From the IMG/VR virus record IMGVR_UViG_3300020281_000010: a DNA stretch of 64,000 nt; one strand, 5' to 3'. The notes under the pieces were generated by a model. That model was given only the letters and a program-made list of their open reading frames with translations. It searched no databases and had not been told where the DNA came from. A program made the position numbers and the translations under genes. Origin of the DNA: a virus. Shown here in pieces: positions 61,236-64,000 of the stretch (positions are counted from its first letter, which is position 1; every line of letters starts with the position of its first letter).

Positions 61236-61687
61236 CTGTCTATCAAGATCTAAGAGACCTAGCAAACTATAAATCTATGGCACCATCGTGGTGGAGGAGT
61301 CAGTTGTTCTTCTACCTTGCAGGTCGTGGTCTGGATAGTCCTGCTGTCGGTGGGGTGTGTACATTCAAGTACACAGCAGAGTATGCAGAGAAGTATCAGT
61401 TCTGGGACAAGTGTCCTATGGTGTATGTGATAGGTGAGTCATCGGAACACTTCTGGGGTGCCAACGTCCACTATCTACCACCTCAAGCACGGGTGTCAGG
61501 GTTCTCCCCGTCACCACCTCCCGTTACTCTGCATAAATACTTGAGAAGTAATGTTATTTCTCCCTATTACAGCATAGAAAACTCTGAGTGGGCAGATATT
61601 GGTTTGATTCCCTCTGAAGAATTTGTTACCACTATCAACGGAAGAAACATACCTGTACCAACGTCGGCAGTATTGAAGAAACTTTAA
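61232..61687 (+). CDS. DNA end-protector gp2-like protein (short)
   Basis: FKY......WDKCPMV...FWGANVHYLPP..R. Confidence 0.6.
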   Translation: MTVYQDLRDLANYKSMAPSWWRSQLFFYLAGRGLDSPAVGGVCTFKYTAEYAEKYQFWDKCPMVYVIGESSEHFWGANVHYLPPQARVSGFSPSPPPVTLHKYLRSNVISPYYSIENSEWADIGLIPSEEFVTTINGRNIPVPTSAVLKKL

Positions 61688-62409
61688 TGGCATACGCAGC
61701 ACCCAATTCATTTACACAGTTCCGAGACCTTGTTGCCAAAGGTGCTTGGGAACCCGTTCGTGGCAACCTGTACTCTGTAGACATTGGTTTCCCGAGAGTT
61801 CTTGGTGCAGGTGCTTTGCAACCTAATGAATTCAAACCTAGTGCAGAATATTATGATGCTATAAACTATTTTGCTGACTCAGTTACGATTCCATCTAGAA
61901 ATATTACTACAGGTGACACACAAAACTTTGGTCTTCAAAGATCATATGCTACAGGACAGACACCTAATGAACTAGCGATGTCATTCCTGGTGACTAAGAA
62001 CCAGTGGCATAGAAATTACTTTGAGACTTGGATGAATGCTATCGCACCTGATGGTGAGAACAGAGTCTGTTTCTATGATGATTACATCTGTGACATCATC
62101 GTTAGAAAGTGGGAGAGAGGATCTAATTTTAAGGTAGAGACAACCAAGAAAGATATAAAGTATGAGACACGTCTGAATAAAGCGACGGGTATCTGGAGAT
62201 TTACGGGTGCATATCCATTCAACCTAGGTACAATGAACTTTGGAAATAGTAATTCAGATGTTATGAGATTGGATGTACAGTTTAAGTTTGAGCGTTATAG
62301 ATTTACTACGAAAGAGAATAGAGTCAATGGATGGACTCAAGAAAAGATCATAAACAATATAGATAATGTGCTCGACAGTAGTGATTTCAGGACCTACGTC
62401 GGGGTCTAA
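61687..62409 (+). CDS. Tail tube / tube-initiator (gp19/gp54-like) protein
   Basis: SVTIPSR, FETWM, F.GAYP, LDVQFKFE. Confidence 0.7.
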   Translation: MAYAAPNSFTQFRDLVAKGAWEPVRGNLYSVDIGFPRVLGAGALQPNEFKPSAEYYDAINYFADSVTIPSRNITTGDTQNFGLQRSYATGQTPNELAMSFLVTKNQWHRNYFETWMNAIAPDGENRVCFYDDYICDIIVRKWERGSNFKVETTKKDIKYETRLNKATGIWRFTGAYPFNLGTMNFGNSNSDVMRLDVQFKFERYRFTTKENRVNGWTQEKIINNIDNVLDSSDFRTYVGV

Positions 62410-62438: not shown

Positions 62439-63143
62439 ATGCCTTTACCTAAACTGAGCATTCCAGATTATGAATGCGTGCTTCCTCGTGGTCAGAAAGT
62501 TACCTACAGACCTTTCCTAGTAAGAGAAGAGAAACTTCTTTACCTTGCTATGGAGACACAGGATAATAAGGAGATGATCAAAGCGGTTAAAGATATTATC
62601 AAAGCGTGCACTAACATTAAGAACGTTAATGATCTTGCCACTTTTGATATTGAATATCTTTTCCTTAAAATCCGTGGTAAATCTGTGGGTGAGGTAAGTG
62701 AATTCAAAATCACTTGTCCTGATGATGAGGAAACTAAGGTTGATGTTCAAGTCAATCTCGATGAAGTTAAGGTACAAATTCCTAAGGAACATACCAACAA
62801 ACTTCAAGTCAGCGATGAAATTACCATTACTATGAAGTATCCTTCACTGGATGTGTTCGTGAAAAATAATCTAGTTGACAATCCAGGTGTAGATGATCTG
62901 TTCAAACTCGCTGCCACTTGTACTGATAGTATTGCTGAAGGCGAGGATGTATATGAAGGAAAAGATCATACAACCAAGGAACTTGTAGAATTCTACGAGA
63001 GTATGGATTCAGTACAGTTCTCTAAGGTTCAGAAGTTCTTTGAAACTATGCCTAAACTTACTCATACTATTGACGTTTTCAATCCTAAAACTGAAGTTAC
63101 ATCACCCATCGTGCTTGAAGGACTAGCAAGTTTTTTCGCGTAG
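62439..63143 (+). CDS. g26: Baseplate hub assembly protein gp26-like
   Basis: MPLPK, YRPFLVREEK, FDIEYLFLKIRGKSVGE, FFETMPKL, LEGLASFF. Confidence 0.88.
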   Translation: MPLPKLSIPDYECVLPRGQKVTYRPFLVREEKLLYLAMETQDNKEMIKAVKDIIKACTNIKNVNDLATFDIEYLFLKIRGKSVGEVSEFKITCPDDEETKVDVQVNLDEVKVQIPKEHTNKLQVSDEITITMKYPSLDVFVKNNLVDNPGVDDLFKLAATCTDSIAEGEDVYEGKDHTTKELVEFYESMDSVQFSKVQKFFETMPKLTHTIDVFNPKTEVTSPIVLEGLASFFA

Positions 63144-63163
63144 CCCTAGCGCACGACTCCTTG

Positions 63164-63337
63164 ATGAATATGTTTGAGACTAACTTTGCTTTGATGCAAC
63201 ACCATAAGTATAGTCTCACTGAGTTAGAAAATATGATGCCCTGGGAACGTGATGTTTATGTGAATCTTCTGATGCGTTATCTACGTGAAGAAGAGGCAAG
63301 GCAACGACAACAGTCGGGTCAACATCAATCACTTTAA
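63164..63337 (+). CDS. g51: Baseplate hub assembly catalyst gp51-like (possibly reached by -1 frameshift)
   Basis: NFALMQHHKYSLTELENMMPWERDVY; not in ORF track. Confidence 0.8.
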   Translation: MNMFETNFALMQHHKYSLTELENMMPWERDVYVNLLMRYLREEEARQRQQSGQHQSL

Positions 63338-64000
63338 TGGCAAAAGCAGCACCCAAGTTACAAATAAGAAACTTTCTTCCTGTCACTACCTCAGGTATGG
63401 ACAAGAAAGATCCTGCTATGTCAATGACCTTGGCAGTCAATAGACTCGGAGCAACGGTAACTGATGTAGGTAAAATCCTAACCAGTTCACATCAAGCGAG
63501 ACTAGATGCAGCGTATCAGGTGCAAGGAAGAAGATCTTTAGCACAAGACAGGGCGAGAGAGAAACAGATTGAGAAGAAGACAGCAGAAAATATTGACAAG
63601 GAGTCAGAAGCAAGAGGATATAAGAAGGGTGGCAGTGGTATCTTTGGACTGCTATCACCACTGATCGAACCTCTAATTCAATTTGCAGGTACTCTTGCAA
63701 CGTTCTTTGCATTGGATTTCTTATCCAAGAAAGAGAACCGACAGGCGATCGAGACTGGTTTCTCGTGGATCGGTAAGTGGTTGGGAACCGTATGGAAAAT
63801 TGGATCGAAGGGTTTCTCTATGCTCTACGATGGTCTGTTCGATCCAGATGGCAACGATGGACCTCTAATGAGAGCACTGAAAGTTGTAGGTGGTCTCGCA
63901 AGTATTTTTGTAGCAGGTAGAATATTAAGACCGTGGAAGATAGCGGGAGACATAGGCAAACTATCTAAACTATTCTCAGGAAACAGAAAGGCAGGAGTAA
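63337..64000 (+). CDS. Tape-measure / baseplate-hub-like protein, 3'-truncated by window edge
   Basis: Open frame MAKAAPKLQIRNF... to window end; helical and Gly-rich; follows g26/g51. Confidence 0.65.
   Translation, partial: MAKAAPKLQIRNFLPVTTSGMDKKDPAMSMTLAVNRLGATVTDVGKILTSSHQARLDAAYQVQGRRSLAQDRAREKQIEKKTAENIDKESEARGYKKGGSGIFGLLSPLIEPLIQFAGTLATFFALDFLSKKENRQAIETGFSWIGKWLGTVWKIGSKGFSMLYDGLFDPDGNDGPLMRALKVVGGLASIFVAGRILRPWKIAGDIGKLSKLFSGNRKAGV

Follow-up and report, generated by a model that had tools for sequence, protein, structure and literature searches.

In an uncultured T4-like cyanophage, the gene known in its relatives as gp26 and the short gp51-like reading frame behind it appear to form one decoding unit. 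Judging from the sequence, a -1 shift near the end of gp26 fuses it to the gp51 domain and thereby yields a short and a long tail assembly chaperone (234 and 299 amino acids) in the manner of the G/GT pair; we would put the probability of this reading at about 85%. The same fusion had been proposed in the initial annotation of this DNA, and that part of the proposal gains support here from a slippery heptamer held in fixed phase, from selection on the -1 frame, from relatives in which the second reading frame lacks a start codon, and from the composition of gp51 in T4 itself.

The accompanying claim, that such a pair had not been described in T4-like myoviruses, must be withdrawn. The tail assembly chaperones (TAC) of T4-like phages were identified by Vladimirov, Gautam and Davidson (Virology 2022; 566:9-15), according to two later papers (PMC10885494, PMC12846349). 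The PRFect paper (PMC10885494) cites this work for T4-like phages that have one short and one long fused TAC gene and no frameshift, and PMC12846349 cites it for poly-T -1 frameshift signals in the TAC-N genes of T4-like phages. As far as these citing papers convey it, the published system shares with ours the PF12322 family, the short/long pair and a poly-T -1 signal at the 3' end of TAC-N, and we can point to no difference between the two. Our direct literature searches on gp26, gp51 and frameshifting returned no description, and the prior paper is known to us through the papers that cite it only. The frameshift signal is real, but the core of the idea is, by these accounts, already known and was published in 2022.

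Anatomy of the locus

The DNA that we analysed, called the window below, is a stretch of 64,000 nucleotides from an uncultured T4-like cyanophage. It belongs to an IMG/VR record (IMGVR_UViG_3300020281_000010) of 104.7 kb, which is about 57% complete and whose closest cultured relatives are Kyanoviridae cyanomyoviruses (~68% nucleotide identity). The features of the locus are listed in Table 1.

Table 1. Features of the chaperone locus, in coordinates of the window
Feature	Position	Strand	Remarks
Tail-tube-like gene	61687..62409	+	240 aa; phrog_45 tail tube 3.4e-43, PF23849 Phage_TTP_2 8.8e-08
Short chaperone gene (TAC-N)	62439..63143	+	frame 0, 234 aa, from the ORF list; labelled 'gp26 baseplate hub' in relatives
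SD-like GAAGGA	63117..63122	+	8 nt 5' of the heptamer; candidate stimulator only
Slippery heptamer T_TTT_TTC	63131..63137	+	X_XXY_YYZ phase; codons of Phe232-Phe233 plus the last base of AGT
Putative -1 extension, C-terminal domain of the long chaperone (TAC-NC)	63137..63337	+	66 codons + TAA; 'gp51' of relatives is the part from 63164
Frame-0 stop TAG	63141..63143	+	one codon past the heptamer; terminates the 234-aa product
800-aa ORF, tape-measure-like	63337..64000 within the window; full ORF L174:2265-4664:-	+ in the window	weak matches

The gp26-like ORF ends AGT TTT TTC GCG TAG, with a run of six T's at 63131-63136 and a C at 63137 that completes the heptamer. In the -1 frame no stop codon occurs between a TGA at 63116-63118 and the TAA at 63335-63337, which leaves this frame open from 63119; from the slip site it reads TTT CGC GTA GCC CTA GCG CAC GAC TCC TTG ATG, and an in-frame ATG of the gp51-like part lies at 63164 (an alternative one at 63170). 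The heptamer is in frame 0 and within the short overlap with the open -1 frame, which is the arrangement expected of a frameshift pair. The predicted fusion comprises 233 + 66 = 299 amino acids with the junction ..GLASFF/RVALAHDSL... The initial annotation had described all these details correctly, namely the end of the ORF, the heptamer, the open -1 frame, the ATG at 63164, GAAGGA and both product lengths. Its argument that this ATG lacks an obvious ribosome binding site is uninformative in our opinion, since an obvious SD is equally absent from the starts of gp26, the tube-like gene and the long gene that follows.

Based on this anatomy, we would expect most ribosomes to terminate at the TAG at 63141 and to release the 234-aa TAC-N. 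A minority would slip back by one base, with Phe tRNAs on UUU UUC of U_UUU_UUC (tandem -1 slippage). The slipped ribosomes would then continue in the -1 frame with CGC GUA GCC, giving the 299-aa TAC-NC with its predicted helical tail of 66 residues. By analogy with G/GT of lambda and gp26/gp51 of T4, both forms may act on the tape measure and the hub when tails are initiated, and would not be part of the virion.

Sites of this kind are rare in the genome: in-frame TTTTTTC occurs only 3 times in the ~28,000 codons of long ORFs of the 104.7 kb. Three other T-rich heptamers in slippery phase that we examined lie inside long ORFs of the window at 812, 12883 and 20909 (one T_TTT_TTA and two T_TTT_TTT). 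Slips at these three positions would yield truncated products only, because a stop is reached in the -1 frame within 2-9 codons, as against 66 codons at the gp26 site. The occurrence of in-phase T-rich heptamers in other genes fits a site of low efficiency, as in lambda G/GT.

Conservation among relatives

For comparison we used 165 loci with a scorable gp26 ORF and slip site, with protein identity down to about 30%, which collapse to 104 distinct segments of 187 nt. In the first set, consisting of cyanomyovirus loci (62-100% protein identity), 83 of 83 have an open -1 frame and a T_TTT_TTC that is separated from TAG by exactly 3 nt; an alignment of the junctions across cyanomyoviruses had been suggested as a check of the fusion, and its outcome is favourable. 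In the second, five distant isolates (Stenotrophomonas DLP_6, Sinorhizobium phiM7, Vibrio D527, Aeromonas Aeh1 and Acidovorax ACP17) all keep T_TTT_TT[C/T], and their -1 ORF begins FFR or FFY. In the third, the stop follows the heptamer by 0-24 nt in each of the 76 evaluable environmental loci from IMG/VR (30-40% identity to phiM7). The open -1 frame encodes the same domain in all three sets. In IMG/VR, searches with the Vibrio and Acidovorax sequences returned almost no related loci.

Such a layout could in principle be an artefact or a sign of decay, if a fused gene had been split by a recent deletion of one nucleotide or by a sequencing error in the homopolymer. The break does lie in a homopolymer, a type of sequence that is prone to sequencing errors. 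However, the same T6 and the same arrangement of frames are found in 165 independent loci, which come from isolates as well as from many metagenomes and span a deep divergence. We rejected sequencing error because of these 165 loci, and the probability that we would leave to artefact or decay is close to negligible.

The distinct segments show what has been kept. T6[C/T] is invariant and always in slippery phase (104/104). The codon before TTT TTC is AGT, GCT, AAT, GAT, TCT, ACT or CAT, and its wobble base is a T in every segment; the residue before Phe-Phe varies and its wobble base is fixed, which points to conservation beyond the requirement of the protein. The frame-0 stop is 3 nt past the heptamer in 83 of the 104 segments and 0, 6, 9 or 24 nt past it in the others, while the heptamer itself is fixed.

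The change of frame can be followed in the phases of conservation. Upstream of the heptamer, mean conservation over the 104 segments amounts to 0.33/0.73/0.99 bits in phases 0/1/2. Over the 27 nt (+7..+33) that separate the heptamer from the ATG of the window, it amounts to 0.84/1.40/0.40 bits. Because the phase-wise bits switch there, the degenerate codon phase moves by -1 exactly at the heptamer. Purifying selection appears to act on the -1 frame from +7 onward, that is, before the ATG at 63164, and the -1 peptide FFR[IV]AL.HDSL.N.Y..NF is conserved starting at the slip site. Of the 104 segments, 66 contain no ATG in the stretch from the slip site to the conserved Asn-Phe motif, and 30 contain none of ATG, GTG and TTG there. 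The window, unlike those 66 segments, has its own ATG.

It is against these data that the arrangement found in the databases has to be weighed, where gp26 and gp51 are two genes and a gp51 of 57 amino acids starts at the ATG at 63164 (or 63170) with no fusion. This arrangement is not without merit, given that an in-frame ATG follows the gp26 stop at 20-23 nt in the window and in many relatives, that a separate 'baseplate hub assembly catalyst' is listed in databases, and that the adjoining genes also start without an SD. Yet it would have the codons between the heptamer and the ATG selected in a frame from which they are not read, it has no start to offer in the 30 startless relatives, several relatives have no annotated gp51, the invariant T before TTT TTC is left without explanation, and gp51 of T4 carries a full N-domain. 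We therefore consider two separate genes very improbable. Some independent initiation at the ATG of the window is possible. Taken as a whole, the pattern of conservation looks like the signature of a decoded shift, unlike that of two separate genes or of a sequencing error.

In one IMG/VR relative (L016, 2193-2420), the last ~25 residues of the extension are wholly unlike those of near-identical neighbours (..EVYVTLLVNYIKEKEQ..), which suggests a recombination breakpoint within the extension.

Relationship to gp26 and gp51 of T4

The 234-aa protein is a member of PF12322 T4_baseplate, with E 4.5e-71 and 239.4 bits (the curated cut-off is 24.5 bits) and residues 9-234 aligned on positions 2-219 of the profile; it also matches phrog_150 at 9.4e-79. 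The 57-aa ORF started from the ATG matches phrog_634 'baseplate hub assembly catalyst' (5.9e-25) over only its last 53 positions, and a Pfam search with the extension of 66-68 amino acids found no family. The extension does align with the C-terminus of T4 gp51 (E 1e-06), collinearly and free of gaps.

In T4 the two products are encoded separately. Its gp51 (249 aa) consists of PF12322 (3.9e-52) followed in frame by an extension-like tail, and its gp26 (208 aa) of PF12322 alone (8.8e-64), with a C-terminus ..RGLKEFFELL in which the Phe-Phe codons are TTC TTT and thus non-slippery. The two proteins are paralogues (E 2e-06), and their genes are divergently transcribed. Present in two copies in T4, PF12322 is found once each in S-WAM1, S-CAM8, Vibrio D527, Aeh1 and the genome studied here. 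Our locus and T4 therefore have in common the family in both products, a homologous C-terminal tail and an end of gp26 at the same Phe-Phe; they differ in that T4 has two genes without a slippery site, whereas here there is a single copy and a putative frameshift. In T4, gp26 and gp51 are listed as hub assembly chaperones, of which gp51 is required and absent from the particle (Leiman et al. 2010, PMC3004832).

Predicted structure and neighbouring genes

An AF2 model of the 234-aa protein, built from an alignment of 38 sequences (pLDDT 87.9, pTM 0.80), was compared by VIA-align with 48,161 PDB chains. Among the top matches for residues 1-90 is the HK97 TAC 2ob9 (Z 7.2, rmsd 3.8, 82 aligned), and YqbN of B. 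subtilis (3klu) scores Z 6.8, both values being below 8. The highest match, 3fgx (Z 7.6), is deposited as an uncharacterised protein, and unrelated matches have Z of 5 or less. Foldseek gave 2ob9 a probability of 0.77 but an E of 0.89; it found no match in the PDB at E 0.001 or better, and a sequence search of the PDB with the gp26 profile found no relative. According to the model, then, the N-terminal 90 residues would fold like the tail assembly chaperones of HK97 and YqbN, and this likeness is supportive, not decisive. The extension (68 residues modelled) is predicted by AF2 as a helical domain with pLDDT 78.9.

Upstream of the chaperone gene there are gp48 (on the minus strand), gp4, a gp2-like gene and then the tail-tube-like gene, a tail-tube-like paralogue immediately 5' of the chaperone gene. 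In phiM7, Vibrio D527 and Aeh1 the gene in this position goes by 'tail tube' or 'gp54', and several cyanophage records have it as 'hypothetical'. Downstream, the ATG of the 800-aa ORF overlaps the TAA of the extension (TAATG). This ORF matches phrog_790, phrog_12696 and, at 7.6e-07, phrog_167 'tail length tape measure', and it has no Pfam match. A second long ORF of 680 amino acids (L174:223-2262:-) matches phrog_167 at 2.6e-11, and neither of the two matches T4_Tape_measure PF25671. The best families of both long ORFs are labelled 'endolysin' (phrog_790, phrog_1200), and their RefSeq relatives are likewise called endolysin. The order of genes is thus a tube-like gene (phrog_45), the chaperone gene and an ORF with a weak tape-measure match (phrog_167).

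Tail chaperones made by a -1 frameshift are reportedly found as G/GT in lambda and as E/E+E' in P2, the latter said to use T_TTT_TTG. What our locus shares with these systems is a -1 shift, here a predicted one, on X_XXY_YYZ near the end of the short ORF, a gene whose neighbours are tube-like and, with weak matches, tape-measure-like, and, in the model, an N-domain fold that resembles the HK97 TAC. It differs from lambda and P2 in having no detectable sequence similarity to them, in a short form of roughly double the length (234 aa), which has additional domains past residue 90, and in that the T4 homologues of the protein are assigned to the baseplate hub. Nevertheless, a G/GT-type reading appears well supported because of the conserved heptamer, the switch of phase, the T4 paralogues, the TAC-like predicted fold and the gene order.

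How the frame may be changed

In dnaX of E. coli, a -1 shift at A_AAA_AAG is accompanied by a 3' hairpin and by an SD located 10 nt before the site. Our locus shares with dnaX a purine-rich SD-like GAAGGA 8 nt before the heptamer, to which a stimulatory role had been attributed. Most relatives have GARGGN at -14..-9; however, the same bases encode a conserved Glu-Gly, and their wobble usage fits two- and four-fold degeneracy. Such a role is thus inseparable from the conservation of the Glu-Gly codons, which account for the SD-like bases. A stem-loop of the dnaX type is not found 3' of the heptamer. RNAalifold applied to the downstream RNA of the 104 sequences gave no consensus pairs, and the 53-70 nt downstream in the window fold no better than shuffles (z +0.58 and +0.86). 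A further difference from dnaX is that the -1 frame here lengthens the protein rather than terminating it early.

Given the homopolymer, it has to be asked whether the frame is changed by the ribosome at all, or whether RNA polymerase adds one U on the T6, so that mRNAs with U7 encode the fusion. The resulting protein of 299 amino acids would be identical, and comparative protein data cannot separate the two mechanisms. That the signal is a homopolymer run, which is T7 or T8 in 9 of the 104 segments, and that no RNA structure typical of stimulators of ribosomal frameshifting was found, speak for slippage in transcription. The divergent relatives L118 and L120-L122 (around 1534) have a T8 that abuts the stop, AGT TTT TTT TAA, and it is in relatives with T8 that transcriptional slippage would be more plausible.

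Bacterial RNA polymerases slip efficiently only on runs of about 8-9 or more, but the run is exactly T6 in 95 of the 104 segments. Other ORFs of the genome contain 34 A-runs and 11 T-runs of at least 6 on the sense strand, so that slippage on 6-mers cannot be frequent. Moreover, the run keeps X_XXY_YYZ phase throughout, which is needed by the ribosome only, although the conservation of Phe-Phe partly accounts for this phase. As for a genome-wide depletion of in-phase T-rich heptamers, by which ribosomal and transcriptional slippage might be told apart, 6 of the 11 T-runs are in slippery phase and the numbers are too small. On balance, we regard transcriptional slippage as the source of the fusion as distinctly unlikely, and a -1 shift by the ribosome remains our preferred reading.

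A more specific proposal would be that either RNA polymerase slips on the six T's, or the ribosome makes use of a minimal cassette with no 3' structure, in which GARGG and the nearby stop are the sole helpers. We think this unlikely. If it is true, either mechanism would address a point that the bioinformatic work of Vladimirov et al. (2022) has apparently not settled experimentally.

Implications

The locus offers an explanation for an earlier observation on gp51 that had been put on record unexplained. In cyanophages and marine vibriophages gp51 was found to have ~20% of the T4 length and to be without ~200 N-terminal residues, and in Aeh1 it was found to be 'missing' (Sullivan et al. 2010, PMC3037559). 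If the gp51 stub is the -1 tail of gp26, both the short gp51 and the missing one of Aeh1 are accounted for. In Aeh1 (L088, 1474-1683), a gp51-type domain follows in the -1 frame after GAT TTT TTC GAC TGA; it has no start codon and is unannotated. The genomes in which gp51 is not annotated include S-CAM8, S-WAM1, ACG-2014b, Aeh1 and ACP17, and a joined CDS is present in none of the cyanomyovirus records that we inspected.

Since the core of the idea has, as far as the citing papers tell, been published, the value of the present analysis lies in confirmation and in a correct annotation for an uncultured phage. This annotation concerns hundreds of cyanomyovirus records in GenBank and RefSeq, where the tail of the putative long chaperone now appears as a 'baseplate hub assembly catalyst' of 57-64 amino acids or as a blank region.
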